From contig CAWGYA010000008.1 in the NCBI GenBank assembly GCA_963826715.1, forward strand, positions 448,001 through 512,000: a stretch of 64,000 bases of DNA. The letters run 5' to 3'. This document shows, in pieces, positions 4,591 through 31,564 of the stretch. Position 1 is the stretch's first letter. Each line of letters opens with the position of its first letter. The notes under the pieces are model-generated. The model worked only from the letters and a program-made list of their open reading frames with translations, was not told where the DNA came from and made no database searches. The stretch comes from Candidatus Bathyarchaeota archaeon. Lineage in GTDB: Archaea > Thermoproteota > Bathyarchaeia > Bathyarchaeales > Bathycorpusculaceae. Position numbers and translations under genes: made by a program.

Positions 4591-4843
4591 AGGTCACATC
4601 CTGTGCGTTTTGTTTCTTCATCTTATTCAACAAAGTAGGGATATTCAGAAACTTTATGATGAATTGTAACCTCGAGTTAATTTGAATAAATATCGCAGTA
4701 TCCACACTTTCATCGAAGATTATCCTTAACAAATTGCATCAAAACATAAAGTGGAAAAAAAGAGTTCTTGTCTTAATGTGGCGGTAGATTTAATGCTCTC
4801 AAATTTATAGTTTAAATTCTGAAATATTGGAGGAGTCGTAAAA

Positions 4844-6347: not shown

Positions 6348-6403
6348 AAGAACCTTATAAGTTACATTGACAGTCTGGGGACCCACTTTAGGATTGGTCA
6401 AGT

Positions 6404-6715
6404 ATGTCAAGAATCAAGGTCACAGGGTTTGAATGTGAAAAATGCCAAGTTAAAACGTCAATATAAGTTTTTTATCGTAAGGATGGACAAGTTGGATACT
6501 CTAGAGCCAGGCATCTTGGGGAAAATAAAAAGTACTACTATCATCAGCAAAGCCTAGAGTATGTTAATAGAAAACTTAGAGAAATATCAAATATTGATCA
6601 TGGTCAAGGTTTTGAAGGTAAATCCATTGAGCATGCCAATGATAAATCAAGGTTAAATTGTGATGTGGAGCCTTCGGCGGGATTTGGACCCGCGACCATT
6701 ACCTTACCAAGGTAA
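6404..6715 (+). pseudogene. partitioned-integrase N-fragment Int(N), overlapping tRNA-Thr antisense
   Basis: MSRIKVTGFECEKCQVKTSI*VFYRKDGQVGYSRARH...YYYHQQS...EPSAGFGPATITLPR*; one in-frame TAA at 6464 (GAA/CAA in paralogues). Confidence 0.65.
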
Positions 6716-6742
6716 CGCCCCACCGGGCTAGGCTACGAAGGC
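6666..6742 (-). tRNA. tRNA-Thr(GGT)
   Basis: GCCTTCG acceptor/CGAAGGC-T-CCA, anticodon arm TTACC-TT-GGT-AA-GGTAA, T-loop GGTCCAAATCC. Confidence 0.95.
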
Positions 6743-6909
6743 AAATTTTTACTCTTCCCCTCAAACAACATACGATAGTAAATAAAATGCTTACGGTTAC
6801 ACTGCTCCTTATCAACGGCAAACCTCATGCAAACAAGACTTAAACCCCAGATTCCTGGGGGCAAATAAATATTAAAGGAGGCAGAAATATCTCAGTACAC
6901 TCAGAGCAT

Positions 6910-6994
6910 GCAGGGGTCTCCAAGCCAGGTCAACGGAGTAGGGCTTAGGACCCTATCGCGTAGGCGTTCGTGGGTTCGAATCCCACCCCCTGCA
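6910..6994 (+). tRNA. tRNA-Leu(TAG)
   Basis: GCAGGGG/CCCCTGC-A acceptor, TAGGG-CT-TAG-GA-CCCTA anticodon arm, long variable arm, GGTTCGAATCC. Confidence 0.95.
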
Positions 6995-7052
6995 CCTTTA
7001 TAAGTAAAACTATAGGGGGTCCCGCCGTGGAGACACTTTGGGTTTTTGCCTG

Positions 7053-8369
7053 CTAAAGTTTGCGTTTTCGGAAAATCTTTGCTCCTTGAAACTCGGTGAC
7101 GTATTCAAAGCCTGAGTCAACTAAGCTTAAGATTTCTTTCTCAGTTCTAGCGACTTTGGAGATGTAGTTTGTTTCGCCTTGAAATAGCGCTTCTTCAAGC
7201 TGAACGTACAAAAGCGTATTTTTGATGTTTTTGTGTCCTAATCGCATCATAACATAATACATGTCTTTGGTTTCGTGGTATAGTATTGTTCCTTTCCAGT
7301 ACCGGAAAGTGTGGAAGTGGATTTTTAGCAATCGTTGGTTGTTGACCTTGTGAGATAGGCGTCTTCTTTGCTGGCAAAGTAGAGTTCCGAAGTGGTCAAC
7401 TGGCATGTGTGGATGTGAGAAGATTCTATCTCCGTAAATTCTTGGCTGTTTCTGAAGCATTTCTAAGAGTTTGTTGCTAAGATGCACGACTCTTGGATTG
7501 CTGTGTTTTTCAGCGGTTATGTTTACGACTTTGCTTTCGAAGTCTATATCGTCCAATTTTAGTGTCCATATTTCGCCGCATCTTGCGCCTGTTTCTTTTA
7601 GCATTTGTAGAAATGTTGCCATGCGACTTGTGCAGCCTGCGATGAGTTGGTCGATTTCAGTTTCTTTGGGGATGAATGGTAGTTTGCGGATTGTTTGGTA
7701 TAACGGTGGGTTCCATGTGCCGCCCGCCATCTTTAGATAGGATGAGTAGGTGTCTACTGCGTTGTTTTTTCTTCCGTTGCACCATGTTTGCTTTGCGATT
7801 ACTTCTTTGATTGTTTCAGGATCATAGAGGTTAGCGCCGCGTTTGGTGAGGACTTTTAGAAGTTTTACTCTGCCTTCTATAGTTGCTTCGCTTTTGCCGT
7901 CTTTTTTTAGCCACCAAGCATATTCTATAATTTTTCCTGTAGCATCAGCAGTTTGCGTTGCGCCCTCCCGCTGGGCGTTTTCTTGTCGGGTTTGACTTGT
8001 GACCAAGGTTAATCCCCCTTGCCGGAGGGTCGATGCTCGTCCCTGACGGGATTCACTGCGTTCTTGGCAGTTAAAAGAATAAGCAGTAGGTGTATTTATT
8101 TTCAATTCTAAACATGTTTGTAGTGGTTTGTGTTCACTGAAGCGGTGTTTGCAGTCTTTACACTTCCATCGTTGTACTCGCTCACCATTTGTTAGTGGTC
8201 TTGTTCCTGCTTGAACTAAAACTATAGAGCCGCATAATGGACAGTATAGGTTAGGCTGTTTAGGGGGTTGGTGCAAGCGGTTTTCCACCGACTTCCTATC
8301 GGAATCTTGCCTTCTGCCAAGAACGCCAAAATCAGAATCAATTTGGAAGCCAACCTCTCCCTCAGTCAA
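7053..8369 (-). CDS. tyrosine recombinase/integrase with N-terminal IS1-InsA-like zinc ribbon
   Basis: Catalytic GARCGE, K, HTFRY, LGHKN, Y; N-terminal CPLCGS...QRWKCKDCKHRF. Confidence 0.92.
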   Translation of the reverse strand: MTEGEVGFQIDSDFGVLGRRQDSDRKSVENRLHQPPKQPNLYCPLCGSIVLVQAGTRPLTNGERVQRWKCKDCKHRFSEHKPLQTCLELKINTPTAYSFNCQERSESRQGRASTLRQGGLTLVTSQTRQENAQREGATQTADATGKIIEYAWWLKKDGKSEATIEGRVKLLKVLTKRGANLYDPETIKEVIAKQTWCNGRKNNAVDTYSSYLKMAGGTWNPPLYQTIRKLPFIPKETEIDQLIAGCTSRMATFLQMLKETGARCGEIWTLKLDDIDFESKVVNITAEKHSNPRVVHLSNKLLEMLQKQPRIYGDRIFSHPHMPVDHFGTLLCQQRRRLSHKVNNQRLLKIHFHTFRYWKGTILYHETKDMYYVMMRLGHKNIKNTLLYVQLEEALFQGETNYISKVARTEKEILSLVDSGFEYVTEFQGAKIFRKRKL

Positions 8370-10319: not shown

Positions 10320-11843
10320 CTATTCTTTTTTGAATAGCTCTTCAGTATTTATTTCCTGTAGCGTTTCTATTATTTTATTCTCAAGCTTCAGTATCTTCTG
10401 TTTGATAATCTCGGGCTCTTCATAGATTACTTCTTTGTACTCAAACTCACGATACTTTGAAATGCTAAGGTCAAAGTTGTTATCTTCAATCTCTTTAATT
10501 GGTACAAAGAAGCATTTGGCTTTTCTATCTTCAAATTTTTCCAAGTCCCTGCGGTCGAATTTGGTTATGATGTCTGTTATGTCGCCTTTGCCGTCGATGA
10601 ATGTTCTTTTATCATCTAGGCTGTAGCCATCTGAGGTCATGCCGTAGAACCAGACTTTCTTTGTTGGTTCGCCTTTAGTGAAGACTAACACCGCTGTGGA
10701 GACGCCTGCATACGGTTTAAAGACGCCTGAAGGCATAGAGACAACAGCGTCAAGCCGGCACTCTTTGAGCAGCTTTTGCCTGATCTGCTTATGAGCATTT
10801 GAATTGCCAAATAATACACCGTCTGGAACAATTACAGCACAAGTTCCGCCGTTAGCCATAATATTGAACATCAATTCCAAAAACAATATCTCAGTTTTAG
10901 TTGTAGTAATCGAGAACTCTCTGCTGATGTCTGATTTGTTTATGCTACCTTTAAAGGGTGGATTAGCTAGGACAATGTCGTAATGGTTCTTTTCTTGGTT
11001 GTACCGAGTTGACAGAGTGTTAAGTTGTTTTATGTTTGGTCGTTTAACGCCGTGCATCATCAAATTCATTAATGAAATTCTAACCATCGTAGAGTCAAAA
11101 TCGTACCCATGAAGCATTAGCTCTCTTAATTGGTTCCACTGCTTTTCATTGAGCTTGTCTCCGACAAAATTGTACTCGTTTCCTTGCTCGTCTACTTTGA
11201 TTAAGTCCTTTGAAGTATTAGTTTTAAGAATATGCTCATAGGCGTTAACCAGAAAGCCAGCCGTGCCGGAGGCGGGGTCACAGATTAAATCGCCAATTTT
11301 CGGGTTAGCCATGGCAACCATCATCTTAATAATATGCCGCGGTGTCCTGAATTGCCCGTTCTTTCCAGCAGTCTTTAGTTCTGAGAGCAGATACTCATAG
11401 AGGTCACCTTTGGCATCCCTATTCTGCTCTTTAATGTGCATTTCATCGATAATTTTGACAGCTTCGATGAGTAATGAGGGTGTTGGGATAGTGAAAACTG
11501 CATCTTTCATATACTGAGCATACAAAGAATCTTCACCGCCCAAGGTCCTAAGGAAAGGAAACACCTTGTCCCTAACATGCTCTAAAATCTGGTCGGCAGG
11601 AAGATTAGTCCACTTAGACCACTTATATTCAGGATGCTCCTCAAAGATTGAGGAATAACCATTACCGTTTAGTTGTGACTCTTGCTCCTGCTGAATGTCC
11701 TCATCTTCAAGTCTCTTCATAAAAATAAGATAAGACATCTGAGTAATGGCTACTAAAGGGTCAGAAATACCTCCGCTCCAAAACTTGTTCCAAAGTTGAT
11801 TTATTTTCGATTTAAGTTCTAAATCTAGCAAACTAATCACCAT
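10320..11843 (-). CDS. hsdM: type I restriction-modification methyltransferase subunit
   Basis: GQFRTPRHII, DPASGTAGFL (motif I), ANPPF (N6-adenine motif IV). Confidence 0.95.
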   Translation of the reverse strand: MVISLLDLELKSKINQLWNKFWSGGISDPLVAITQMSYLIFMKRLEDEDIQQEQESQLNGNGYSSIFEEHPEYKWSKWTNLPADQILEHVRDKVFPFLRTLGGEDSLYAQYMKDAVFTIPTPSLLIEAVKIIDEMHIKEQNRDAKGDLYEYLLSELKTAGKNGQFRTPRHIIKMMVAMANPKIGDLICDPASGTAGFLVNAYEHILKTNTSKDLIKVDEQGNEYNFVGDKLNEKQWNQLRELMLHGYDFDSTMVRISLMNLMMHGVKRPNIKQLNTLSTRYNQEKNHYDIVLANPPFKGSINKSDISREFSITTTKTEILFLELMFNIMANGGTCAVIVPDGVLFGNSNAHKQIRQKLLKECRLDAVVSMPSGVFKPYAGVSTAVLVFTKGEPTKKVWFYGMTSDGYSLDDKRTFIDGKGDITDIITKFDRRDLEKFEDRKAKCFFVPIKEIEDNNFDLSISKYREFEYKEVIYEEPEIIKQKILKLENKIIETLQEINTEELFKKE

Positions 11844-13056
11844 TAAACGCTTTTTCGGTTAAAATGCTTGATAACTTGACAATCTCCAAGTTAGTGTCCA
11901 GTTGCATCTGCCGTAATTCTTTAATTTGGCGATAAATTTCTACGAATTTTTTCTGAAGGTTTATTGGTGGAATTGGTATCTCAAGCGTTTCCAGCACTTT
12001 CGTATTCATAAATGTATATGCCCCATCTGCACCAGTTTTTAATCGCCCTATTTTTCCTTTAAAGTACTCCATTAAACAAACAAAATATACTGGACTAAGG
12101 ATGGTTTTGTCCAGGGATAAACGAATAAGATTTGAACTTATTATTGACTCCTTAGCGGAAGTCTCAACTACGCACATTTTACCAACTGTTCCAGCGCGTG
12201 ATATTATAACGTCACCATTTTCTATTGCATAAGATTTTAAAGCGTTAAATTTTTGCTCTGTTACAAACAAGCATTTTCGTTCTAAGAAAGCCCCATTATG
12301 TATATTGTCCATGGTCCAAACTGGAATGCCTGATTTGACGTATTCAAATTTTTTGAGGGCGCTCCCGAATGGTCCGCACTTTAAACCGGATCTATTTTTC
12401 GAAAAAGCGGTTTTTAGCTTTGCAAAGTCAAAATTGTATGGGTTTTTTTTAGGTTCTCCAAACATTTTAATGAAAACATTTTGTAAATATTCTTCTGTTA
12501 ACTTATCCGCTTGTTTTCGCCGTTCCCTTAATTGCTCGACATTGTCAAGCATTGAAACAATTTTTTCTTGAGTGCTAATAGAAGGCAAAGGTACTTTTAA
12601 TTTTTGAAGATTTTTTTTACTAATTCGTTCTCTGGTAGTTCCAACTGAAAATTTTTTGGCTTGATTTTGAAGGGCTTCTGTATTTAGAAAGTAATTTAGG
12701 TATTTTACCTTTGCAAGGGTTGGGTCAGGCTTAATTATTGTTACATCTACAGCTGTAACGGTATCAAAATTAAGTTTTGGTAATATGCAAGACCTGCAGA
12801 TAGGCTCGGCCATTCGTGAAACTAGTAAATCTCCTTCCTCTAACCTAGTGCATTTAAGTTTTTTACATGTTTTTTCAGAGATAAACTTGAAATCTTTGTG
12901 TAAGAATTTTCCCTTACCGATATGCTTGAGTTGCACCACACCTATTTTGCCATTATCGGACATGTCCCGAGAGAGTATCCAATCGCCATCAAGAAAACCT
13001 ATGGTAGACTTGCCCATAACCTCGATAAAGGATCTGCAAGAATCTTTTATTTTCAT
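11833..13056 (-). CDS. hsdS: type I R-M specificity subunit
   Basis: Two TRDs with conserved VPLPS..TQEKIV and IPIPPI.LQKKF helices. Confidence 0.92.
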   Translation of the reverse strand: MKIKDSCRSFIEVMGKSTIGFLDGDWILSRDMSDNGKIGVVQLKHIGKGKFLHKDFKFISEKTCKKLKCTRLEEGDLLVSRMAEPICRSCILPKLNFDTVTAVDVTIIKPDPTLAKVKYLNYFLNTEALQNQAKKFSVGTTRERISKKNLQKLKVPLPSISTQEKIVSMLDNVEQLRERRKQADKLTEEYLQNVFIKMFGEPKKNPYNFDFAKLKTAFSKNRSGLKCGPFGSALKKFEYVKSGIPVWTMDNIHNGAFLERKCLFVTEQKFNALKSYAIENGDVIISRAGTVGKMCVVETSAKESIISSNLIRLSLDKTILSPVYFVCLMEYFKGKIGRLKTGADGAYTFMNTKVLETLEIPIPPINLQKKFVEIYRQIKELRQMQLDTNLEIVKLSSILTEKAFNGD

Positions 13057-13451
13057 TTGCTTTCACCCTTTAGCAAGTAAGCGGGAATTGGAACTGAATC
13101 TTTTTTTTTGCTTTGGATATAGCTTGCCCTTTCTTCTAACACTGTGACAAGCGCTTTTTTTAGGTCTTCAAGATAGAGGGGAGAAATATTTTTCATGATA
13201 GTAGCGGTTGCACCTGAATCTATTTTAACTAACCAAGTAAAAGAATCCTGATCTTTATTATAATGAACAATGTTTTTTCCAGCGACATTAGTTGGTAAGT
13301 GGATTTTTGTCTCTTTGAGAATTAATTCTCTAAGAAGATTTGCAGGGCTAACACCTTTCTTTTCGCAATGAGTCCTAAACATCGTTAACTCGTCAACTGG
13401 CATTTTTGTGGACACAGTTCTATATTCCATGGCTAACTTGTATGCCGGCAA
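13053..13451 (-). CDS. ribbon-helix-helix-like DNA-binding protein inside hsd operon
   Basis: YRTVSTKMPVDELTMFRTHCEKKGVSPANLLRELIL; stop overlaps hsdS start. Confidence 0.6.
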   Translation of the reverse strand: MPAYKLAMEYRTVSTKMPVDELTMFRTHCEKKGVSPANLLRELILKETKIHLPTNVAGKNIVHYNKDQDSFTWLVKIDSGATATIMKNISPLYLEDLKKALVTVLEERASYIQSKKKDSVPIPAYLLKGESK

Positions 13452-13489
13452 GGCTTAATAAGTATTTATGTAAACCTCAGTTTACCTTA

Positions 13490-16229
13490 TTATTTCATCT
13501 TTAATTGGTTGCATTTCTGAATGACAAGCTTAAGTTCGTCTATCTTGAATAAGTCAAGTGGGCGTTCATTGGACAAGGGTGGTTTTGCTAGATCAGCCAA
13601 CTCTATTCTCTTTCTTTCAGAGAAAACCTTCTTTAAAATTAATAGAAATTCGAGTTGTCTTGAATTATAACTGTTCTGTTTGACTATGTATTGGTCAAAT
13701 TCGTATTCGATTAGCTCCTTTGGGTCTTGTTTCTCGGTTAAGCCCATTATTCTGTGCAGGAAGGATATGAAGTCGGTTTTTTGGTATTTCTGCACGTTTT
13801 CAATAGTCAACTCTGGTTTTAGGGAGGACAACTCTAGTTCCAATTCACCTAGTTCGCTGGCGGTTATGCCTTCTCTACTTTGGATTTTTTGGGCAAGTGT
13901 ATTTGAATCAAGTAATTTCTTGATCGCTGGGTCCTCTTTTACTTCTTTAGCGTAGGTTTCTCTTAGTATCACAAAGTCTGGTTGGTCAACCTGAACCACT
14001 TTTTTTGGGGTAGGTTCGTAATACTTCATTAAAGGTGCTATCTGTACAACTAAAAACTCAACATCACTAAATGTTAGGTCTTCCCAAAAAGAATCGGCGA
14101 AGACTCGCAGGATATTGGGCAGGTTATTTTTTATTTCGGTGAGGGTGTCTCTTCTGCGTATGTTATCGGACATACCTTGAACGTAATCTCTGAGTTCAAA
14201 AATCAGGTCTTTTTTGCCTTCTAAGACATACCCGAACAGCTTTTCAACCCGCAAGATGAATGAAGCTACATTGGGGTTTTTGCCTTGGCTGAAAATCATG
14301 AGGGGGGCAATTTCTTTTTTTAACTCAGCGATGTATGTATCTAAATTGAAGACTTCACCTTTGATCTTTTCTAGGTACAGACAGTTTTTCTCGTAGAATA
14401 AAAGAGTCTTTGTCTAAATCATCAATGGAAGCGATAATTTTGCCAGCGATAATGGTTTTTTGTTCTTGATTGAGGGGTTGTTCTAAGAGTTTTACTCGGT
14501 TTTCAAAAATTCTGGTGATGACATCTTTGGTTGGTAAATGCTCTTTGGCTTGGCTGAATTGGTGGTAGATAACATTTGAGTGCCCACCTATTTTGAAGTC
14601 AAGAATTAAGAAGTTGCTTTTTTCTTGGTTTGGTAGCCATAGCGGATGTTTGCATGCTTCTCGGTTTCTTGTGCCGCGCCCCACCATTTGCCAGAATCGG
14701 ATATGTGAGAAAACGGGTTTAACAAAAACCAAGTTACAGACTTCGGGGACATCAACACCTGTATCGAGCATGCCAACGGATAGGGCGATTCTTGGCTCTG
14801 ATTGAAGACCAAACCGCTTAACCTCATCATCTGAGCGATACATCTCTGAAGTGATAACCTGTACATCGTTACTTAGAGTGGGAACAACTATTCCAAAAAT
14901 TCTTTTCAAGTGTTTTGCATGTCTTTGGCTGGCACAGAAAAAGATAGACTTGCAGGGTTTCCCATCATCAGAACGGTAACAACTCCGCAGAAACTCGCGG
15001 ACTATTACCTCATTGGTTTTGTCATCCATGAATACCCTGTCGAACTCTGAACCGGCAAACTCTGCCGTTTCAGGATTGACTTCTTGGCGTCGAAGTTGGT
15101 CTTTTAGCGCATCAGTTAGGGTTGAGCCTTTAATCCCTAAAGATAGCCGTTCTGTGTCAATTATTTCTGCCCTGTAAGGCACAAGAATAGTATCAACAAT
15201 AGCCTCGTCGTAAGAGTAATCTACCGTTGGCTTACCATGCTCGCAGTCGAATAAATCAAACGTATTCTTGGTTTCACATTCTCTAGGGGTTGCTGTTAGG
15301 CCTATCTTTATTGCATCAAAGAATCTATCGACAAAATGGTTCCTGTCGTAATATGACCTGTGGGCTTCATCAAAGACTATTAAGTCAAAAAAGCCTGGGC
15401 TAAACTTTTCTGCAAGCCGGGGTTTGCCGCTCATTAAAGTTTGAACAGTAGAAACATACAGCCGACCTGTCGTTGAAAAGCCATCACGCAAGTCAACTAC
15501 GGGCTCAGTGAAGAACTGCTCAAACCCACTAGACTTAACCTGATTAACAAGGGCTGTCCGGTCAGCAATAAACAAAGCATTTCTAACAATATTGGCGTTT
15601 ATCAAAACATCAATTATTGCCATGGCAACTCTGGTTTTCCCTGTACCGGTAGCCATTTGAACAAGCGCTTTTCGATGACCCTTAGAAAAATGCTCGCTTA
15701 GTTGCCGGACAATCTGAATACTTCTTGGTCGGCTGACTATATTTGAGTTAATTTTAACCTCGCAAGGGTTTCGTCTCTTACTGTAATTGTCGCCTCTTCT
15801 TTTGAGATCCTCTTGACTAAAGGGACCGCTAACTTTACGCTCTATACCATCCTCATCGACTAAGCACCAAACTTTGCCGTTGGTAAGAAAGAAAGGAATC
15901 CTTCTGCCGGTCTGGCGTTCAATATCTTTTGCGTAGCTGCGCGCTTGGATGCGCCCTTTTTCTTCATCTTTGGAGAATTTTTTTGCCTCAATAAGAGCTA
16001 AAACCGAATAGTCCTCATCAAGCAATAGATAATCAATAAAACGATCAACCCCTTTTTCAGGGTGCTTATCATAAAATACTAATCGTTTATTTACAAAATC
16101 CGACTTAACCGAATTGACCTCTGTCTTAACGTACTTTTCAATCCAGCCTCTTTTCTTTAGGGCGGGGTCAATGTATTTGGTTCTGGTTAATTTCTCATCG
16201 GAGGAATCAAACGCTTCTTCTTCTGTCAT
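13490..16229 (-). CDS. hsdR: type I restriction endonuclease R subunit (EcoAI/EcoEI-like), frameshift near 14375
   Basis: D..IEAKK nuclease motif, MATGTGKT, DEAHR, TATP, QMVGRGTR; C-terminal part continues in another frame (13490..14299). Confidence 0.88.
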
Positions 16230-16780: not shown

Positions 16781-17840
16781 TTAAGCTGGTAACTCATGGA
16801 AAAATTGATCAAGTGTGGGTTGTTCTTTGCGAACTGGTTGCACAACATCTTTCAATCTCTCGACTAAAACATGATATTGTTGACTCCAAATTAGATCAAC
16901 AAAGAGCTGTATCATCTTTGCATATTTTCGTTCATTTCCCAGTTTTAGCGAGCTAAGATAGGTATCTCTGTCGACTCCGAGAAAGAGTAATCGAGGATAC
17001 CGCACTTCTTTAACATATAATTGAAAATTTCTCGGCCGACTCGTCCATTTCCATCGGTAAAAGGATGAACCATCTCAAAACCATAATGGAATAATACAGC
17101 CGCCTCAAAAGGATGAACGCCTTTGTCCAATCGATTGTAATATTCCGTAATTAGTTTTTGAAGCTCAGATTTGATTAGGATTGCAGGTGTTACAGGGAGG
17201 TCACATCCAGCTACCATAATGCTATCAATTCGTCTAAAAACTCCTGATGATTCATTGTCAATATTATTCATGATTAATGAATGAAGCGTCTTCAAGAAAT
17301 CCAAGGTTACCTTAGCTTTGCTGCTTTCTCTAAATTTGATGACTTTTTTAAAATTTTGAACCTCGTTAATCTCTCTCAGAGATTTCCCGGCAGGTGTAAT
17401 GTTGTTAACTCGAAGGTCAAACGCTTGATGGGACGAAATAGTGTTGCCTTCAATATTAGTTGTTCCCTGAATATAATTTATTTCAAAGGCTTGCTCATAA
17501 ACAGCTACTTCGCTTAATGTCAACAAGCTTATGAAAGTTCTGTAATAATGGCGTACTTTTTCAACGCTCCTTATGCCATCGCGACTAAGGTATTTTGACT
17601 TGTAAAAGCTACTGCTTAATTCAGCTCGCTTCTCACTGCCATTGCTTCGAGGTCATAGGCATATTTAATTCCTAATTGTATTTTTTCTTCTGCTGATGTT
17701 GGGGGAGCGCGACCAACGTAAATTCTAACTTTTGTTCGTCTGTTTTTGTATTTTACATCTTTTACTATGTAACTAATAGGTTTGTTATTGCGATAGGTAG
17801 TTTCTATCCTGTACTTTTTTTGTTTCCTTGCCGCTTGCAT
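16781..17840 (-). CDS. Fic-domain protein, split over three ORFs by frameshifts
   Basis: HPFTDGNGRVGR catalytic motif; TTNIEGN inhibitory motif; ORFs 17616..17840, 16945..17526, 16781..17005 are contiguous. Confidence 0.85.
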
Positions 17841-18821: not shown

Positions 18822-20368
18822 TTATAAAAATAAATTAACAGATCCAATATTACCTCTGCGTATAGTAACATAAGCTATTATCCCCAATATAGCGCCCAAA
18901 AATACTATAATTGCTGCCAACACAACCTCGCTACCCAAAGGCTGAGCTGTTAACGTGCCTTTTACTATATGCATACTTATCAGGTGTGTGCTATGGTGAT
19001 ACTTAAAGCAGTAAATCCATGAGTCACCAGCAGAAATAACAGTATAATTGAGTTGTTTGCCATCCAGAGTTGCCTGAAGGTCTTCCCCGTTTTCAACCAT
19101 ATTTTTGGCGATGGTTGCTTGGCGTAACTGTGGTTCCTGTCGGTCCAGTCACGTTAAAGCTTAAAGTAGAGGTGGCATTGTCAAATGCTAAGGCGTAAAC
19201 TGTGCTGTTTGATTCAATAACAAAAGTACTTCTCTCGCTGGGCAGAAAACTCAAGGTTGTAGTGTTGCTAACAGGCGCGTTTTCTGCATCTCCACTCCAC
19301 GCAGCTTTAAACGTGAATGTTCCAGAAGCGCTATTTATCCACTGAATGTTGTAGTTGCCTTCTATGTCAGTTTGGGCTGAACTAATTGGAATCCAAGAAT
19401 CAATTCCCAAAAAATTGTATGATAAAACAACAGTTTTGTTTTGCAATGGGATGTTCGTAGAATTCGCCAAGTTGCCGAAAATGTTAACTGCTGAACCAGC
19501 AACATTTGACAAAGATTGTGCGCTCGCCAAGATTGACAGGCCCCGTTAAGCGAGGGTTGTTTTCTATAAATAGGGGAAACGTAGAAATCATCAAAACAAT
19601 CAGTTCCCCAATAATGTCCCCATTTGCTAAGTGTAGATATATACATAGCATTCGCTTGCGTTGATAGCGTAGGGTTCGGAATAGCGAAATAGACCGTTTT
19701 CATAGAATGAAACTGTTCCATTTGAAATCTCAATTTCAAGTTTGCCAGTCGGCGATAACCATGGGACCTCAACTCTCCACGAGATATTTCCATCAATTCG
19801 GCTTACAACACGAGTTAAGTTCATATGATAATATTTTGTATCAAGTACTTTGTTTAGCATATACCAGTTCGTCGCATTGACTGGGTCTCGGTCTGTTATT
19901 TTCTGGTCACTTATAAGAAGAACCATTTCGGAAACATTGTCGAGTTCTACAACATTAACAGATGTTTCAAATCCTGAGGTGGAGTTTGTACTAATTGGGT
20001 ATTTTGTTACATAGCCTGCTTGGCTCCAATACCAATCTTCCCAGCTTCTGTTGCTGTCTGGCACAGTAACCTGTAATTTTCCGTCCTTCTCTGCGGTTAA
20101 TCCTCCATTTATTTCAATTTTATCCCAAATACCTAGAGTTGAAGGTGTTATCGTCAAAGTTATCTTGCATTTGCGATTGTGGATTTCGTTGAGTTAAGTC
20201 AGATGGGATTGTTGTGCTGCTTAAGTCTTGGATGAATTCTGAGGTACTTGTGAGGGTAGCCTGAGAGGAAGCTTTCGTTGTGGGGGTATCTGAGCAAATT
20301 ACTGTTAATGATAGAATACAGAACAATAAAATACTGATTAATCCAGCTTTGCTGTTTTGGAACAACAT
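18822..20368 (-). pseudogene. secreted/surface protein with Ig-like domain and C-terminal TM, multiply frameshifted
   Basis: Signal peptide at 20368; consecutive ORFs 20120..20368, 19627..20157, 19093..19530, 18822..19100 end in TM plus basic tail. Confidence 0.7.
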
Positions 20369-22301: not shown

Positions 22302-23300
22302 TTATTCTAGTATTACCCGTCCCTTGCTTGCATGTCCAAATCGCTTAACCTTCCAGTTCTTCATGTTGCCTTTTATGATTTGGGGATTGCTTGTCAGGAT
22401 GTAGAAGGGCATTTTTGTTTGGGAAGTGTAGAGTTCAGCGATAAAGTTTAGAAGTCGTTTGCCGACTCCGATTCCTTGATAGTCAGGTAGCACCACTAAT
22501 CGGCTAACTCGATAATATTTTGCCTTCATCTTAATGCAGGCAACTGCTATGAAGGCTATGGGTTTATCTTGGTAGAGGGCAACATAACATCGGACTCCTG
22601 CACCTAGAGAGCCGTTTAGATAGTGATATTGCCGAAACATCTTCCAAAGGTTTGTGCCGCACCGATAGATTTTGAGGTCAACGGGCGGCCTGCTTCTTTT
22701 TTTCGACTAAACTCCATCGTATCCGTGCAGAATACCCAGTCGGGTTCCAGCCAATCGACAACGTCATAGTGGCAGGTAACAGCTATGAATTTCTTTTTTG
22801 AACTTCTGCGAACTGCTTTACTTATGGCAAAGGCACTGACTTTAGCAATTTCTCTATCTACAACAGTGTAAACTCGTCAAAGACAACAAAGGTTGATTAA
22901 ACAAAGCGCCCTCGCAATGTCAACACGCATTTTTTCACCTTGACTTAGACAATCATAGCTCTTAAGCCAGTCCGGAGGAGAAGCAAAACCGACACTGCAA
23001 AGCATCCGCGTTATCTCTGAGGTTTCAAGCCATGTGGGGAAATCATCCAAGACGCATTTGCTATTGTATTCAAAACCTTGAATGTAGGCGTCTGGGAAAA
23101 GCTGTTTAGCTATACTGGTTTTACCAGAGCCGCTTCGCCCAACGATAACACCGATTTGCCAATCGAAATCCTCAAGCGGCAAACGGCCCTTAAACCGCTT
23201 CTCCAGTTTCACATCGCTTAAAGTGTAGCTGCCGACAACGCTTTGGGCTCGGAAACTGTCGGATTCTTCCCATCCTTTTACAATGTCAAAATCCGTAACT
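22302..23300 (-). CDS. ABC-type ATPase fused/coupled to GNAT (Mom-like) acetyltransferase, frameshifted
   Basis: GRSGSGKT, LSQGEKMRV, (V)VFDEF..VVDR, CHYDVVDWLEPDWV; then YHYL...RLVVLPDYQGIGVG. Confidence 0.8.
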
Positions 23301-23847
23301 TATAACCCTCCGACTTTAGCTTCTCAAAATTTCCTTTTGGTCTGCTTCATCTTTACATTCAATAATGAACTCGTAGGTTTCAGGAACCGAAAAAGAAACC
23401 TCACGCTCATCCACCTCAATGGGGATCTCTCGCCGACAGATTGAAGAAACAACTTTAAATCCTCTTTTTCGCCTCATCAATTATGCGCAGGTACTCGGCG
23501 CTATCCAATTCTTTGTTGTGTTTGCCTTTTAGCTTGTTCAGCACCTGCCGTAGAAGTCGGCGGTCAACATCCTTAATTGGCAAGCGGATGACACTGCACT
23601 CAGTCATGCCAAGCTCCTTCATAGCCGTAACACGCTGCTGCCCATCAGCCACCAAAAGCTCACTATTAGTAACAACAGGAACGATGTCGCCCCATCTTTT
23701 AATTGAAGCTTTCAGGCGATCAAGTTGCGCAAAGCTCATTCGGTTAGGGTTGTCTTGGTCAAACTTGAGCTCGCTGATTTTCACTCGTTCCGACATTGGA
23801 ATCGGAATTTCTTGGTCTCGCTCGGTTTCGACTTGTTGGTCGCTCAT
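23278..23847 (-). CDS. ParB/Srx N-terminal domain protein, frameshifted C-terminus
   Basis: DNPNRM...LKASIKRWG..PVV...VADGQQRV; out-of-frame tail IIECKDEADQKE.FEKLKSEGYKLRILTL overlaps ATPase start. Confidence 0.8.
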
Positions 23848-25107: not shown

Positions 25108-25890
25108 TCAAGAGGAGAACTTAGTTATGGCAATATTTCTTAGTTGCTCTTGAATTTTAGGGTCCTGATATTTTTGTTCATCCTTCAGGTAATCAATCAG
25201 GATTTCATACTCTGTAGGTGCCATTAGCTCTTTTAGCCAGAGGACTCCTTTAGACTTAAACGGGATTAACGATTTAAGAACCATACCTTTAGACTGTGCT
25301 TTTTCCTTCGCACCTTGCTCTCTATCCAGTATTACAACCACGTCATTGCAAATGACGTTTACATTTTTGTCCTTTGCTGCTTCCAATATTTGTTCCCCTC
25401 GCAACTAATTTCGTATCGAATTTGGTTGCTAGGTCGTCAATTATGGCTATATGGTCACCTTCACAAAAATCCCCTTCCACCAAAGAATGGTGACCATGAG
25501 CGTTAACCTTACCCTTTATTTTGGCGAGATGCTCGTTAAATGCTGCTTTTGTCTTAATATCTTCCAAGTTTCTGCCGTAACATGAAGGAATCCCTGAAGC
25601 TATCGTTACGGAGCAAGCAATTGGTATTCCTGCAAGATAAACTCCGACAATTCGGTTAACTTGCGGCATTTCAGTTTTAATCAGCTCTCCAATAGCGGAG
25701 CCTATTTTGTTCAATATTTCTTGACCGTGTTTCTTACTTCCTATTGGACAATATTAATGTAAAAAGGACTCCATAAACCTGAAAACAACCTGTATCCATT
25801 CGGGTTATTCTTGTACCATGTTTCAATCATTCCTTCTTTATAGAGTAATTCTACTATGTCTTTGCAGATCTGTTCTCGATTGAAAGTCAT
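25108..25890 (-). CDS. orotate-phosphoribosyltransferase-like type I PRTase, two frameshifts
   Basis: ATG 25890 MTFNREQIC...FSGLWSPFYIN...AGIPIA...IAIIDDLAT...VVILDREQGA. Confidence 0.8.
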
Positions 25891-25892
25891 TC

Positions 25893-26810
25893 TCAGTTGA
25901 TTCTCCTATACATAACGACGAAATCAGCATATCCACTGATTGAGAAATCATGCCTCTTCCTAAACCCGAGTTTCTCTTTATAGAAGGTTTCTTTGGTTTT
26001 AAAGGCATCTAATGTAATCGTTCGAATACCTTTGAACCGACAATACTCTATAAAGAATAGCATCAGGTCGGTTCCAATGCCCTGTTCACTATAATTAACA
26101 TCGACTGCAAGTGTATCAATACGAGCGGTAGTTGATTTAATATTAAAATGCAACGCTGCTATAATTTTGCTTTCCTTTTCTACGACGAAAACTTTTCCAC
26201 TCTTATTGCATCTCAAAAAATACAAATATTCTCCGATCCCCGTCTTATCGATACGTTCATCGCCACATTTGAACCATTGAGAAGAAACATCGTTTTCATC
26301 TAATTCTCGAACGAAATCGCCTGGTGGAGTCAACACTTGTGGATAAGGCCATTCTATGTCTGGAGGATAACCTTCGAGTAATAGGTAAAGATTGTCCTCA
26401 GCATTAATAATTGAAGAAAAGAAATGGGGAAAACAAGAAGCATTGTTTCTTGCTGCAATACTCATAGTTTTAACATCAATGGCTCCACAAGCAGTAGCCT
26501 GTTTGGCGACTGCTCGAAGCGTGTTTCCTGTATCCACTCTCACGTATGTTATCAGTACTTTTTTGCCCTTTACTTCCGTTTCGGGAAAATTGGTAATTTC
26601 TGTAACATTAGTGCCTTTTCGTACCACATCGCAGGCATAAACTTCAATCTTCTCATTGTTCAAAATTTCAGCTAATCGAGTAACAATTTCAATGCCTGAT
26701 ATTCCGACTGCAATTAATACGGGCAAATCATTTGCATAATACTTTTTTATCTCAATAGAAAGGGAGCTTAGAAGATGAGAAAAAATATCTTCTGTGAGAT
26801 AGACATCCAC
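25893..26810 (-). CDS. PRTase-like domain fused to GNAT acetyltransferase
   Basis: N-half GKKVLITYVRVDTGNT (degenerate PRPP loop); C-half FKCGDERID, LAVDVNYSEQGIG, LDA..FY..LGF. Confidence 0.8.
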   Translation of the reverse strand: MDVYLTEDIFSHLLSSLSIEIKKYYANDLPVLIAVGISGIEIVTRLAEILNNEKIEVYACDVVRKGTNVTEITNFPETEVKGKKVLITYVRVDTGNTLRAVAKQATACGAIDVKTMSIAARNNASCFPHFFSSIINAEDNLYLLLEGYPPDIEWPYPQVLTPPGDFVRELDENDVSSQWFKCGDERIDKTGIGEYLYFLRCNKSGKVFVVEKESKIIAALHFNIKSTTARIDTLAVDVNYSEQGIGTDLMLFFIEYCRFKGIRTITLDAFKTKETFYKEKLGFRKRHDFSISGYADFVVMYRRIN

Positions 26811-26826
26811 TATTCAAGCCACGGAT

Positions 26827-27069
26827 TTAAGCAATGTTTTCTGGAGAAAGTGATCTTATGGGTGTAGTTTCTATTTCTTTTCCAAGAATCTTGGCAAAGC
26901 ATCTGCGGCATAAGGCACCTTCTTGAGTCTCATATTTCCCTGTAATAGCCTCGTGAATATGAACACCACAATTTGAGCAAATCAAAGCTGGCTTTTCGCG
27001 CAACTGGTCCCTTAAACTTTCAATTCTTTTCTTGGTCTGAGCGTTCATTTTCGATTCACTTTTTGCCAA
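26827..27069 (-). CDS. small zinc-finger protein
   Basis: CSNC...CRRC; 16 bp upstream of PRTase-GNAT. Confidence 0.65.
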   Translation of the reverse strand: MAKSESKMNAQTKKRIESLRDQLREKPALICSNCGVHIHEAITGKYETQEGALCRRCFAKILGKEIETTPIRSLSPENIA

Positions 27070-27547: not shown

Positions 27548-28027
27548 TTATTGAAATGGCAACCAAGTTGTGTTAATATAAACGAGAATAAGTATCCAGG
27601 CGACAAAGAATATCAAGGGCATGACTTGCGTTAAGTATGATGGGCTTTTTATTTTCTTTTTAGTTAGTTCACTTTCGATAGATGCGAAGCAGTGAAACCT
27701 ATCTATTTCATTGCTTAGTTTTATCATTTCTTGCCGCCATTTATCAATCCAGTGAAGAGACCCCTTCAGAACTAGAAACCATAAAAGAGCTATAGAAAGT
27801 CCAATTATGGGGACGAGTGAAACTAGGAAAGAATAACCATCTAGGAGGGTTGGATAAATTAATATGAATGCAGAAAAGAGGCCAGTATTTGTTATTAGAT
27901 AAAAGTTTGCTCTATTCCAAAATTCCCTTAGATCCTGATTAAAATGGTCGGCAACAATTTTATAGGTTTCAATATCAATTTTATTTATCTGATCCTTAAG
28001 TGAATTTGAAGCGTCGCTTGTTGTCAT
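27548..28027 (-). CDS. small multi-TM membrane protein (RipA-like pattern)
   Basis: FWNRANFYLITNTGLF, 3 TM. Confidence 0.6.
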   Translation of the reverse strand: MTTSDASNSLKDQINKIDIETYKIVADHFNQDLREFWNRANFYLITNTGLFSAFILIYPTLLDGYSFLVSLVPIIGLSIALLWFLVLKGSLHWIDKWRQEMIKLSNEIDRFHCFASIESELTKKKIKSPSYLTQVMPLIFFVAWILILVYINTTWLPFQ

Positions 28028-28449
28028 ATATAATCTCTCTTTTTGCTTTTCCTTCGCTTTTTTGGAATAATTGAAGTGCTATTAGGGATTTTTCTGGTGC
28101 AATCAAATAACAAATGACCAAGTGGGTTACGATTTGGATCTTGTGAGTCTATGTGTCGTTTTATTTTAAAGCCCTTGTTTGAATTGTGAACATCACCGTG
28201 CAATCGCCGTCCATCAGGAAGAGGTTTTTCAAATGTAATTTTTGCCCCAGGTTTATTTCCTTGCAGTGAAGGACCTATTTTATAGCGTTTGTTACGGAGA
28301 TGAGTTTCGATCCCTTCCAAGGTTGTTGGGGGTAACACAAATTTTTTAGGACCTTTGTTTTTTAATCCAGTTGATTTTCTCGCTCTATTACCATAAGAAC
28401 TATTTGATTTCCTTGCTCTGTAACTCAATGTATTGTTTCCACCTAGCAA
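28024..28449 (-). CDS. basic hypothetical protein
   Basis: RLHGDVH...RHIDSQDPNRNPLGHL; ATGA-coupled to 27548..28027. Confidence 0.55.
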   Translation of the reverse strand: MLGGNNTLSYRARKSNSSYGNRARKSTGLKNKGPKKFVLPPTTLEGIETHLRNKRYKIGPSLQGNKPGAKITFEKPLPDGRRLHGDVHNSNKGFKIKRHIDSQDPNRNPLGHLLFDCTRKIPNSTSIIPKKRRKSKKRDYI

Positions 28450-28880: not shown

Positions 28881-29012
28881 AGTTAGACGGATTATATAAA
28901 AAAAGAGATTAGTCGGGTTATGTATCCACTGGATAGAGGGTTCGAATCCCACCCCCTGCACCATATATAAATAAACTCTAGGGGGTTTGTCCAGGCGATA
29001 CTTTTAGGTTCT

Positions 29013-29078
29013 TTAGCTGAGTTTGCGTTTTCTAAAGATTTTAGAGCCTTGAAACTCAGTAACGTACTCAAAGCCTGC
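29013..29078 (-). pseudogene. C-terminal remnant of integrase homologous to 7053..8369
   Basis: AGFEYVTEFQGSKIFRKRKLS* vs SGFEYVTEFQGAKIFRKRKL*. Confidence 0.85.
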
Positions 29079-29162
29079 TTGCTGTTTATAAAAATTATTA
29101 AAAGTATGTATTAAGATACCATAATTTTAGAAAAAAGTGGCAATTAGCACACCCAGCTAACG

Positions 29163-30044
29163 CTAACTTTTTTCTTTATGTCTTTTACGAGCTATAAGGA
29201 GCACTGAAAAAACTAAAACAACTACAACCACTCCCAGTATCAGAAGTATTGGATTTAACCAGAAGTCAGAACCCGCTGGCGAAGAGACTGGTACACTAGG
29301 TGTCGTAGTTGGAGAAGGGGTTGGTGAAGCAACAGGCAATATGTTGTTTTCCAGGACTGTATCTGGCGCACCTGAAATGTCAATATACTCATCCGTAATG
29401 TCTAGGAACGTATTGTTTATTGCGGCGTTGTGGTCACCATAATTGAACTCAATACCACAACATACATTAGAAATATCGTTTCCAATAACATCATTGTAAG
29501 ACCCGAAAACTCTAATTCCATTGCCGCTGTCCAGACCTATTAGGGAGTTATAAGCAATTTTGTTATTTGTTGCTGAATAGCCAATATTTATACCCGAAAC
29601 AGTGTTCTTAATTGAATTTCCAGTGATTGTGCAGTCAGAAATTTTATCTGCAACAATACCGTGGACGAAATTATCTATATTAAAATTTCGAACTTCCACA
29701 TTTTTTGATGAACTTAAATCTATTGCAGTATCTTGTATTGGACCATGGCCTCTACCTAGAAGGGTGTGATATTTGCCATCCAGCACTATGTTATCACATT
29801 TGATTATTAATTTGTATTCTGTAATATCCCCTGTTAAGCTGTAAGTTTTTGCGTTTCTTGCAATAGGGGCCGTATTTGGGTCAATGCTGCCATCCCCCAA
29901 TATGTAAATTTCAGGCATATTTTCCATAAGACCTGGGTTAGCGACTAGATTGGCTGCGCTAGTAACTTCAAACCCACAGCTAAACAGTAATGCAACAAAT
30001 AGAATAAACACGCCAATTTTCTTATGCAAATACGGTTGCCTCAA
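29163..30044 (-). CDS. right-handed beta-helix (NosD/CASH-like) surface protein
   Basis: Signal peptide, IYI..DGSIDP..API, parallel beta-helix repeats, P/T linker, TM; paralogue of 56472..57347. Confidence 0.85.
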   Translation of the reverse strand: MRQPYLHKKIGVFILFVALLFSCGFEVTSAANLVANPGLMENMPEIYILGDGSIDPNTAPIARNAKTYSLTGDITEYKLIIKCDNIVLDGKYHTLLGRGHGPIQDTAIDLSSSKNVEVRNFNIDNFVHGIVADKISDCTITGNSIKNTVSGINIGYSATNNKIAYNSLIGLDSGNGIRVFGSYNDVIGNDISNVCCGIEFNYGDHNAAINNTFLDITDEYIDISGAPDTVLENNILPVASPTPSPTTTPSVPVSSPAGSDFWLNPILLILGVVVVVLVFSVLLIARKRHKEKS

Positions 30045-30082
30045 CCATATTGTTTGAAGAAATCAAGAGTATAAAAGGTTTT

Positions 30083-30102
30083 TAGTCAAGGTTTATTGAC
30101 TA
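30083..30102. promoter_or_regulatory. palindrome TAGTCAA-N6-TTGACTA just upstream of BRE/TATA
   Basis: Same core motif at 20413..20430 and 56403..56420; core lies 7 nt from the TATA-like box in all three. Confidence 0.6.
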
Positions 30103-30655
30103 TCAGACTATTGATAGGATGATGTAGTAAGTCAAGTGAAAAGGTTATTACGGTATTTAATATAAATTAAAAGGCAATCAGAAACACCACCCTTGGTTTT
30201 CCGTGAATATGACAAACAGTCACTAAGTACAGTTCAATGGTGAATAGCGGCTAACCCGGTTCGCAATGTTGAATTAAGCATGGATACATCACTTTTCACC
30301 CAAAAAGCACCGATAATAACCCAAGAACCCAAAAAACAGCGAAAACCACTATATGAAAAAACCCGCAGTAGCCTTTTTTTCCATGCTGTTTTTATTAAAA
30401 AAGAGGTTAGTGCTTAATGCGGGGTTTTTGCGGCTCGTTGCGAAGTATTATTGCGGTTTTCCCCATACTTTTAGGGACTTAATAACATTTCCAGAATAGA
30501 CGATAAGCTAAATTATAGACGAAGATTGAAAAGTGTTTTAACTTACAGGGAAGAGCGGGGGATTTTGCCACTCAGCTGCATGGAAGCCAAAAAATACTAA
30601 ATCAAGTGAGTTATCTAAAAAAAGAGATTGGCGGGATATGTCTCCACTGCTTTGA

Positions 30656-31564
30656 GGGTTCGAATCCCACCCCCTGCACTTCAATCGGACTCAATCGCAT
30701 TAGTTTTGCCTGTTGTTTTGAAGTTGAAGAGTGAAGGTAGAAAGGATTCTACGTTAGCTCCGATGCTTAAGCGATTGAAGTTTTTGGGAAGAAACGTAAA
30801 CTTAGAAGACCCTGAGAAGGTCAAAGAATTTATCGCCTCTAAAAACTATACCGATGGATACAAAGATAACCTGATTGATGCATACAGTCATTTCTGTCGA
30901 TTCTATTCGGTTCAATGGACTAAGCCAATCTATATGCGTGAGGAAAGAATTACAAAAGCACCTAGAGAGGAAGATATAAACAAAATAATTAGTCATGGCA
31001 AATTCAAGTTCTGTTGCTTTTTCGGTTCTTAGAGATTCAGGGATGCGACCCGTTGAAGTTGGAATGTTGAGAGTTAAGGACTTTGACTAGATAGCGGTGA
31101 TGTGTATCCTACAACTGCAAAAAATGGTTCAGGTAGAATTCTTAGAATTAGGAAAGAAACATTGGCGATGCTCAAGAGGTATATTAGCGAAAACAATCTT
31201 AACTCCAATGGATGTTCTTTGGGAATGATAAAAGAGTCAAGCAAAACTGGTCTAGATTGAAAACCTCTGTTGCAATCAAACTATGCGAACCAAAATTACT
31301 TCAAATAAGACTTTATGACTTAAGGCATTTCGCTGGTTCTATGACCTACTATAGAACTAAGGAGACATCATCTATACAATGCGATTTCTAGGGCATAAGA
31401 ACATTAAGAATACTTTGCGTTACGTTCACTTGATTGATTTCAATAAGGATGACTATCATGTTTCTGTAGCCAAAACCGTTGATGACGCTTGTAAACTAAT
31501 AGAGCACGGCTTTGAGTATGTCACATCAATCGATGAGGTTAAGCTATTCAAAAAGAGGAAGTAG
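30656..31564 (+). pseudogene. tyrosine integrase C-fragment starting at att site, frameshifted
   Basis: RVRIPPPALQ.. in frame through att; GMRPVE, TAKN, YDLRH, LGHKN, Y; homologous to core of 7053..8369. Confidence 0.85.

Follow-up and report, generated by a model that had tools for sequence, protein, structure and literature searches.

Three co-directional genes on the minus strand of a 64,000-nucleotide stretch of DNA from an uncultured Candidatus Bathyarchaeota archaeon (contig CAWGYA010000008.1, positions 448,001 to 512,000; the entire stretch is hereafter called the window) constitute an incomplete copy of an archaeal cassette that is conserved but rare and is carried here by a mobile element. 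They respectively encode an 80-residue Zn-ribbon protein with a CxxC...CxxC pattern (26827..27069), a 305-residue fusion of a degenerate hypoxanthine-guanine phosphoribosyltransferase (HGPRT)-like domain to a GNAT acetyltransferase domain (25893..26810) and a PyrE-like orotate phosphoribosyltransferase (OPRT) with a loop insertion, which as assembled is spread over three frames (25108..25890, delimited by tblastn with intact homologues). As already recorded in the preliminary description of this region, the successive open reading frames (ORFs) are separated by gaps of 16 and then 2 bp. The gene order of the cassette is a small ribbon-helix-helix (RHH)-like protein, the Zn-ribbon, the fusion of the disabled HGPRT-like domain with the GNAT domain, the PyrE variant and, often, PyrF. 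We tentatively propose, while granting the idea somewhat less than an even chance, that the cassette specifies a nucleoside monophosphate (NMP)-sensing acetyltransferase module, which is coupled to an accessory branch of uridine monophosphate (UMP) synthesis and disseminated by integrative elements.

Gene content, co-conservation, degenerate motifs, fold neighbors and mobile context are observed; from these we infer what such a module binds, how it is gated, what it acetylates and to what physiological effect. The phosphoribosyltransferase (PRTase)-like domain, being unable to use phosphoribosyl pyrophosphate (PRPP), would bind a nucleoside 5'-monophosphate as a sensor or substrate clamp and would gate the C-terminal GNAT domain. 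The latter, judging by its nearest structures, would be directed at alpha-amino groups on macromolecule-bound amino acids, namely protein N-termini or aminoacyl-tRNA, with the Zn-ribbon acting as an obligate partner, be it a regulator or a substrate. The module would be coupled to the adjacent branch leading from orotate via orotidine monophosphate (OMP) to UMP, and would most likely tune it or report on it in accordance with nucleotide supply.

The cassette was compared across 7 independent loci including the window, the others being L001 from the genome collection (99.96% identical to L004), the metagenomic loci L002, L003, L005 and L006, and a locus (L027) from G320, a genome of the same genus. 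The Zn-ribbon, fusion and PyrE-like genes are adjacent in 7/7 loci, and their order recurs in the 6 beyond the window at 45-66% protein identity, which indicates that the arrangement is not due to chance. Within the cassette the genes are closely spaced or overlap. Of the 6 loci with sufficient flanking sequence, 4 have a PyrF-like gene, placed immediately downstream in L001 and L002, divergently upstream in L006 (all three of the pyrF_sub2 type) and upstream in L005, where it is of the archaeal type. The L005 pyrF is 62% identical to that of another genome (G011), in which pyrF directly abuts a PyrE variant, without the trio in between; hence, what separates pyrF from pyrE in L005 is the trio of small protein, Zn-ribbon and fusion. 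Among 401 Bathyarchaeia genomes the full-length fusion was found in only two, namely the window's own (G000) and G320, which are also the only two with strong matches to the Zn-ribbon (E ~1e-42); the PyrE variant was found in these and in G011.

The preliminary description had named conserved synteny of the three genes and association with defence islands as points to be checked; the former holds throughout, and in 4 of the 7 loci the context is mobile or defence-like. For example, the neighbors of the cassette in L001 include genes for a JAB-E1-like protein (PADLOC E1-E2, 3.1e-15), E2-like and ubiquitin-like proteins, a PDC-M14B match and an integrase fragment, while L002 has hsdS/hsdM together with an intact gene combining ParB N-terminal, ABC ATPase and GNAT domains, and L006 has an integrase-like fragment. 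In L001 the minus-strand regions 3664-5721 and 6013-6981 contain the JAB-E1-like fusion, the E2-like protein and the ubiquitin-like small protein, which resemble a Bil-like conjugation set, and the PDC-M14B-like protein. A known defence system was rejected as an identity for the cassette, as PADLOC gave no match for any of its five proteins and PHROGs gave generic acetyltransferase matches only. Neither the PRTase-GNAT fusion nor the cassette was found described in the literature searched.

Domains of the fusion protein

Among 5.8 billion proteins searched, the fusion family is represented by 13 clusters including the window's own (291-311 aa, 42-66% identical), one of which is labelled Candidatus Bathyarchaeota, and in all these close clusters the N-terminal PRTase-like and C-terminal GNAT domains are kept together. 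Pfam detects the GNAT domain in the window's protein (5.5e-10) and, under the cut-off of 26.3 bits, Pribosyltran (PF00156; 4.2e-5, 23.4 bits). The PRTase-like domain with its hood spans residues 1-160 (26331..26810, minus strand) and is delineated by profile matches and by NCBIfam, where HGPRT is its best, albeit weak, PRT match. A profile of the fusion family retrieved the purine PRTase of P. horikoshii (PDB 1vdm; 5.6e-10, residues 3-133), followed by HGPRTs (3.5e-4 to 2e-3), and it is with these enzymes, rather than with the PyrR-like sensors invoked by the preliminary description, that the domain belongs.

In the PRPP-loop remnant of the window's protein (VLITYVRVDTGNT, residues 85-97; 26520..26558, minus strand) Y-V stands in place of the acidic pair, and the DTGxT 5'-phosphate loop is kept. 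Alignment of the 13 members gives the consensus Y-[VA]-R-V-D-T-G-x-T, with Y89, R91, V92, D93, T94, G95 and T97 invariant. The corresponding segment of 1vdm, VVIVDDVSDTGKT, aligns with the degenerate loop VLITYVRVDTGKT, such that DD becomes Y-V/A and DTGKT is retained; likewise, the GVARGG loop of 1vdm aligns with GVGISG in the fusion, so that ARGG becomes GISG and the Arg is lost. The C-terminal hood has the invariant motifs FPxFF…EDNLYLLLxGYPPD. Thus, as compared with catalytic type I PRTases, the fusion family retains the fold and signature with the D/x-T-G-x-T loop but has lost the DD/ED pair. In type I PRTases it is normally the residues lost here that make contact with the ribose hydroxyls, with Mg and with pyrophosphate. 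As neither the acidic pair nor the ARGG Arg remains, and the DTGxT loop and purine-PRTase hood are preserved, the domain is predicted from its sequence to be a non-catalytic NMP binder, serving either as a sensor or as a substrate clamp.

The loss of the acidic pair is not a peculiarity of the window. A wider PRT-GNAT set comprised 128 matches at E<=1e-10 among 1.84 billion representatives, many of which were full-length fusions of 280-360 aa. When a regular expression for the PRPP loop was run on 113 proteins in this length range, 83 matched: Y-x was confined to the 16 proteins of the archaeal clade, the remainder having D-S (43), D-G (16) or other D-x pairs, with DD in only 2. All 16 archaeal-clade proteins lack the acidic pair, having Y-V, Y-A, Y-M, Y-I or Y-T in its stead, which confirms the replacement originally noticed in the window copy alone. 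The closest Atlas cluster, a Bacteroidota PRT+GNAT family with a score of 0.83, is a lead only. No relatives were recovered from viral contigs with either the archaeal or the bacterial family as query, nor from plasmid or phage records, each searched with one bacterial family member; accordingly, an origin of the fusion from viruses, plasmids or phages was rejected.

PyrR and PurR, which act by binding RNA or DNA and retain the acidic pair, offer an instructive comparison. Like the predicted module they use a type I PRTase fold to read nucleotides or PRPP in the control of nucleotide synthesis and are encoded together with pyr genes; in contrast, the domain in the fusion is closest to purine PRTases (1vdm and the HGPRTs), has lost the acidic pair and has an acetyltransferase as its output.

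The GNAT domain occupies residues 163-305 (25896..26324, minus strand; Pfam) and includes the segments WFKCGDERIDKTGIGEYLYF (residues 179-198) and, near the C-terminus, LDAFKTKETFYKEKLGF. An FKCGDERID motif lies at its start (26247..26273, minus strand), with C182, G183 and D188 invariant, and the same type of motif is also present in the wider bacterial fusion family. F276-Y277 is invariant, and the acetyl-CoA loop reads SEQGIG in the window copy and QGQGxG in its relatives. The AlphaFold model of the fusion has a pLDDT of 74.5, with the GNAT part mostly at 81-94. In Foldseek searches with this model the HP0935 protein acetyltransferase, Thermoplasma Ard1 and RimI ranked first (2e-9 to 7e-9), with no toxin among the matches listed. 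Structure comparison by Z, in which rows within one unit were treated as tied, had among its top entries RimI (17.0 and 16.8), AtaT2 (16.7), KacT (16.5), TacT1, GmvT and AtaT (16.4) and Ard1 (16.1), and the domain is closely superposable on the solved toxins, which acetylate aminoacyl-tRNA and make up 18 of the best 26 entries. At the sequence level the fusion-family profile matched the glucosamine-6-phosphate N-acetyltransferase GNA1 (3t90) at 3e-8 over only 58 residues, with further sugar-phosphate GNA1 entries after it, Ard1 at 7.6e-4, and the toxins KacT at 2.6e-3, 7byy at 4.1e-3 and AtaT at 5.7e-3 to 8e-3. NCBIfam gave only weak matches, namely rimI at 26.6 bits against a cut-off of 86.4, the streptothricin acetyltransferase Sat4 (6.7e-5) and the arsinothricin acetyltransferase ArsN2 (2.2e-4).

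An F-x-CG-x3-L/ID motif at the N-terminus is regarded as a mark of the TacT/AtaT toxins, and the preliminary description had relied on it in assigning the domain to them. As a detectable link to the toxins the motif was rejected: a 51-residue query with the F-x-C-G-x3-I-D region alone retrieved no toxin from the PDB, only unrelated chains at E>=0.12. As to the broader assignment, toxins account for 18 of the best 26 entries by Z, Foldseek ranks HP0935, Ard1 and RimI first, and the profile scores the toxins far worse than GNA1. According to a published survey, the aminoacyl-tRNA-acetylating toxins are a distinct monophyletic group targeting the alpha-amine of the charged amino acid, and RimI-type enzymes perform the same alpha-amine acetylation on protein N-termini (PMC7180214). 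In our reading of the models, the GNAT domain sits in the alpha-amine, macromolecule-directed corner of the superfamily, with either a protein or an aminoacyl-tRNA as its likely substrate. RimI and archaeal Ard1 (NatA-type) resemble the domain as its top Foldseek matches and as entries tied at the top by Z (17.0-16.1); they differ in having no nucleotide-binding domain, Zn-ribbon partner or link to pyr genes, and the rimI model of NCBIfam is, as noted, far from reaching its cut-off.

These comparisons bear on whether the cassette instead encodes a nucleotide-gated TacT/AtaT-like toxin, a less likely reading in our estimate but a live one, with several observations in its favor. Such a protein would halt translation by acetylating the alpha-amine of aminoacyl-tRNA, with the PRTase-like domain gating it by way of a nucleotide linked to PyrE/PyrF, and the Zn-ribbon and/or the small RHH-like protein neutralizing it in the service of element addiction or abortive infection. 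Like TacT, AtaT, ItaT, KacT and GmvT, the fusion has a conserved Tyr in FY…GF, a basic GNAT domain (isoelectric point, pI, of 9.1-9.5 in 9/13 members and 8.4 in the window copy), a small gene heading the operon in 6/7 loci and a location on mobile elements, where AtaRT-like modules, too, are often found (PMC7180214). Also in favor of this reading are the conservation of F276-Y277 and of the GxG acetyl-CoA loop, a place in the toxin-rich tier of the structure comparison, neighbors such as integrases, restriction-modification systems, Fic, ubiquitin-like or PDC-M14B proteins, and a patchy distribution (2/401 genomes). However, the known toxins are stand-alone proteins of ~150-180 aa, whereas all 13 members of the fusion family have 291-311 aa and an N-terminal PRTase-like domain; the fusion is, moreover, archaeal and has a Zn-ribbon and a PyrE variant beside it in every locus compared. 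Its profile similarity to the toxins is weak (2.6e-3 to 8e-3, as against 3e-8 for GNA1 and 7.6e-4 for Ard1), and the Foldseek, motif-region and PADLOC results given above likewise fail to point to toxins.

A more specific version, to which we assign a distinctly low probability, envisages an archaeal translation toxin of novel construction, borne by a mobile element, that permanently couples a TacT-like aminoacyl-tRNA acetyltransferase with a dead purine-PRTase domain and has the Zn-ribbon as its antitoxin. Here the PRTase-like domain, from which precisely the residues gripping the ribose hydroxyls have been lost, would either act as a clamp on the 3'-terminal aminoacylated nucleotide of tRNA or sense an NMP pool linked to PyrE/PyrF. 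A protein of this kind, if real, would have no precedent as a sensor-fused GNAT toxin or as a GNAT toxin from archaea.

The GNA1 match raises a different alternative, which we regard as improbable to a slightly greater degree still: the PRTase-like domain may hold a phosphoribosyl-bearing substrate (a nucleotide or an aminoacyl- or amino-nucleotide) that the GNAT domain N-acetylates, either as a biosynthetic step after PyrE/PyrF or in the detoxification of nucleoside-type antibiotics. This would accommodate the best sequence match of the GNAT domain and the other sugar-phosphate GNA1 entries next to it, the weak Sat4 and ArsN2 matches, and a phosphate loop that is kept while catalytic residues are lost. 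Nevertheless, UMP and OMP lack an amine and no aminating enzyme is encoded in the cassette, the 58-residue GNA1 match is to the acetyl-CoA motif region, the structural top tier consists of macromolecule-directed alpha-amine acetyltransferases, and the conserved Zn-ribbon partner would be left without a role.

Partner proteins and the weighing of the readings

The Zn-ribbon protein has an N-terminal helix, a CxxC, an invariant IHEAITGKYET hairpin and a second CxxC. Across the 7 loci C31, C34, C54, C57, H39, E40, K45 and Y46 are invariant. Co-folding of the fusion with the Zn-ribbon gave a median interface score (ipSAE) of 0.47 over runs of 0.03, 0.47 and 0.81, against 0.01 for the best control, with a partner pLDDT of >=49 and >=0% of contacts agreeing between runs. 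As regards calibration, 116/157 solved complexes and 2/215 mismatches attained the mark, and at values of <=0.60 only 18 of these 157 did so, along with both mismatches. The modelling thus lends weak support to a pairing of the fusion with the Zn-ribbon.

The small upstream protein (58-78 aa) heads the operon in 6 of the 7 loci and, by tblastn, is missing in the window only. The preliminary description was therefore right that no RHH antitoxin adjoins the genes in the window, but the other six loci have this small protein with an RHH-like pattern. It is predicted to have an extended N-terminus and three helices (pLDDT 75.5), with conserved F62/W65 in the last helix, a model compatible with an RHH fold followed by a C-terminal helix. 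It gave no DUF1778 or RHH match in Pfam at E<=10, no PDB sequence match below E 0.17 and no Foldseek match at E<=0.001, and was accordingly rejected as a recognizable RHH protein or antitoxin. Two observations count here against the gated-toxin reading: its would-be antitoxin has neither the DUF1778/RHH match of the known systems nor a fold match in the PDB, and the fusion of the window is intact in the absence of the small-protein gene.

The third gene is confirmed by alignments as PyrE-like, with the DD pair kept (IAIIDDLATKFDTK) and an insertion, both as the preliminary description had them; the insertion is helical, ~25 aa long and located in the catalytic flexible loop. The motifs SPxYINLR, DD and DREQG are conserved in alignments including 2wns and 3qw4, and a profile of the variant retrieved PRTases only from the PDB, with OPRTs first (5.5e-17 for 2wns, the OPRT domain of human UMPS). 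Thus it resembles PyrE in its OPRT matches and motifs. It differs in having no Pfam match and scoring under the TIGR00336 cut-off of 106.8 bits (49.6 bits for an intact homologue, 41.3 bits for the pieces in the window), in the insertion and in a TKF[DN]T motif in place of the usual T-G-rich phosphate loop, and in being accessory to the pyrE and pyrF of the host. The labels of its relatives among the matches listed include Lokiarchaeota, Promethearchaeota, Micrarchaeota and Omnitrophica; by these criteria it is an unannotated form of PyrE, widespread in Asgard, DPANN and Bathyarchaeia assemblies and mostly unaccompanied by the fusion. In G011, where it lies directly after pyrF (L031, G011:C2, 718-2199), it may be the working pyrE of the genome.

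The adjacent PyrF-like proteins retain the D-x-K-x-x-D motif and are of two non-orthologous types, one scoring 97.6-115.5 bits on pyrF_sub2 (cut-off 110.6) and the archaeal one of L005 scoring 77.8 bits on NF010386. Both the PyrE and PyrF partners look, from their sequences, like working orotate-to-UMP enzymes. Elsewhere in its genome G000 has a canonical pyrE (130.7 bits) and a pyrF (141.8 bits on NF010386) as well as a further pyrE-like gene; its cassette is therefore accessory. For the same reason a housekeeping pyr operon was rejected for G000, its over-cut-off pyrE, second pyrE-like gene and pyrF all being located elsewhere.

It is chiefly the pyr genes that separate the readings. The preliminary description had the toxin gated by PRPP or by a nucleotide that the partner PRTase makes or consumes. 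What appears to be a genuine PyrE, accompanied in 4/6 loci by PyrF of either of two non-orthologous types, speaks for true orotate-to-UMP conversion and not for a private signal. The two PyrF types, together with the insertion of the trio inside the pyrF-pyrE pair of L005, link the module to real orotate-to-UMP conversion, and the product of this pathway would be a poor private signal because it would be swamped by the housekeeping pool. These two considerations count against the gated toxin and tip the balance toward an NMP-sensing acetyltransferase module.

The latter has precedents in the protein acetyltransferases gated by cyclic AMP (cAMP), amino acids or NADP, in which a sensor domain is joined to a GNAT domain. 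Such cAMP-, ACT- and NADP-fused enzymes likewise combine an N-terminal small-molecule domain with a C-terminal GNAT and are encoded near genes for metabolic enzymes, which they may control. In the present case, unlike in these, the predicted sensor is a dead type I PRTase, for which no description was found in the literature searched, and the GNAT domain belongs to the short RimI/TacT type and not to the Pat type.

Several observations weigh against the NMP-sensing module. The extreme rarity of the fusion (13 clusters in 5.8 billion proteins) and its presence in mobile, defence-rich DNA would fit a conflict system better. The family of the PyrE variant is far wider than that of the fusion, with 290 matches at E<=1e-3; of the 120 listed, ~115 are relatives of full length (39-100% identity). 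This PyrE clearly has no need of the module. The co-fold with the Zn-ribbon is weak, one of its three runs standing at 0.03, and the inter-domain linker and hood (residues 120-164) have a pLDDT <50 in the AlphaFold model. Finally, the high pI of the GNAT domain in most members, including that of 8.4 in the window copy, is as for a nucleic-acid binder; in a divergent trio of members it is 5.4-6.0.

The integrative element and the state of the window's copy

The preliminary description had placed the genes inside a 22-kb element, and its boundaries are borne out by direct repeats and an integrase. The element spans 6997-28962 (~22 kb) and is bounded by 25-nt tRNA-Leu repeats: attL (6972..6996, plus strand) is the 3' end of tRNA-Leu(TAG), and attR (28938..28962, plus strand) matches it in 25/25 nt. 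A tyrosine integrase gene lies just within attL (7053..8369, minus strand; Pfam Phage_integrase 1.1e-18). The element also has a type I restriction-modification system (hsdM, hsdS and hsdR, 10320-16229, minus strand) and a Fic-domain protein (16945-17526, minus strand; SoFic/PDC-S04-like, 3.8e-24).

By tblastn, the cassette of the window is without the small-protein gene and without PyrF. The PyrE-like gene as assembled runs in frames -2/-1/-2 (25890-25741, 25747-25343 and 25404-25108) owing to two 1-nt indels. The first, a 1-nt deletion outside any homopolymer (at about 25748..25750), falls in the context …aat at tgt cca…, for which relatives have N-L-R-P. The second is an extra G in a GGGG run (25395..25398), and one G fewer restores the frame …A-R-E-Q-I-L-E-A-A-K…. 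The read-level check of these frameshifts that had been called for could be made for the second: a contig of 240 nt from one public run (share 0.07 of the stretch), which covers 25230-25470 at >=99% identity and a depth of 2.3 and whose span excludes the first break, has one letter fewer at 25395. On the strength of this single near-identical contig, the second break is either strain-specific or an assembly error.

Other genes of the element are split as well: hsdR (13490-14299 and 14355-16229), the ParB-ABC-GNAT gene (three pieces, 23847-22302) and the overlapping ORFs at 19093-20157. By comparison, no internal stops occur in long housekeeping genes from the rest of the genome (0/7 tRNA-synt_1 and 0/15 AAA matches); a generally frameshift-riddled assembly was thus rejected, and the breaks are concentrated in the element. 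This concentration reflects either real decay in the strain or a consensus of lower quality where strains vary. At 7 columns on which >=11/12 relatives agree, the window's fusion has a private change, the first position of the acetyl-CoA loop being among them.

It is therefore nearly an even matter whether this genome holds a decaying remnant of the cassette, in which the fusion and Zn-ribbon ORFs have yet to be mutated, a view compatible with any of the readings above. The missing small-protein and PyrF genes, the two indels in PyrE, the other split genes of the element against 0/22 disrupted housekeeping matches and the private changes of the fusion would all follow from it. Conversely, the second break is absent from the near-identical public contig and is perhaps an assembly error or restricted to one strain, the 7 private changes fall within the range of 0-12 seen in other members, and the G320 copy is also without PyrF yet otherwise intact. 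Taken at face value, the sequence suggests that the cassette in the window is probably in decay or retains part of its function at most.

Further features of the element and its surroundings are as follows. The three pieces of the ParB-ABC-GNAT gene lie at 23847-23455, 23212-22877 and 22640-22302 (22302-23847, minus strand), and its counterpart in L002 (6052-7959) is intact and encodes 635 aa; in PADLOC it matches mad3 (2.6e-11) and mad8 (1.3e-6), and it corresponds to the 'GNAT coupled with an ABC ATPase' that is predicted to acylate a DNA base (PMC7824862). The ORFs at 19093-20157 (minus strand) are three overlapping ones of 145, 144 and 176 aa, one with a weak Big_3_5 match, which look like one frameshifted gene. 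Just upstream of the Zn-ribbon gene, one of two ORFs (27548-28027 and 28024-28449, both minus strand) encodes an '8xMP' octameric membrane protein (Pfam 2.3e-22) and overlaps with that for a basic protein of 141 aa, the pair occupying the place of the small protein in other loci; nothing of relevance to '8xMP' was recovered from the literature searched. A third exact copy of the tRNA-Leu 3' end (24/24 nt) lies at 30656-30679, 1.7 kb past attR, suggesting a second small tandem insertion or remnant at 28963-30679, which contains a NosD/beta-helix gene (29163-30044). Outside the element a fragment at 31397-31561 (plus strand) resembles the C-terminus of the integrase (7059-7232, minus strand), and a tRNA-Thr region is duplicated 2.2 kb upstream (4390-4500 versus 6603-6712, 87% identity); together, they hint that integration at this tRNA cluster has happened more than once.

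Wider significance

Dead enzymes used as metabolite sensors and acetyltransferases gated by sensor domains are recurring control devices, and the joining of a dead purine PRTase to an alpha-amine-type GNAT domain is a combination of the two without a description in the literature searched. Its characterization may reveal a new coupling of nucleotide supply to protein or tRNA acetylation in archaea and their mobile elements, or else a new class of gated toxins, and would also define an unannotated PyrE variant that has no Pfam match. As many of the bacterial fusions also have a degenerate PRPP loop, solving one member would annotate many proteins.

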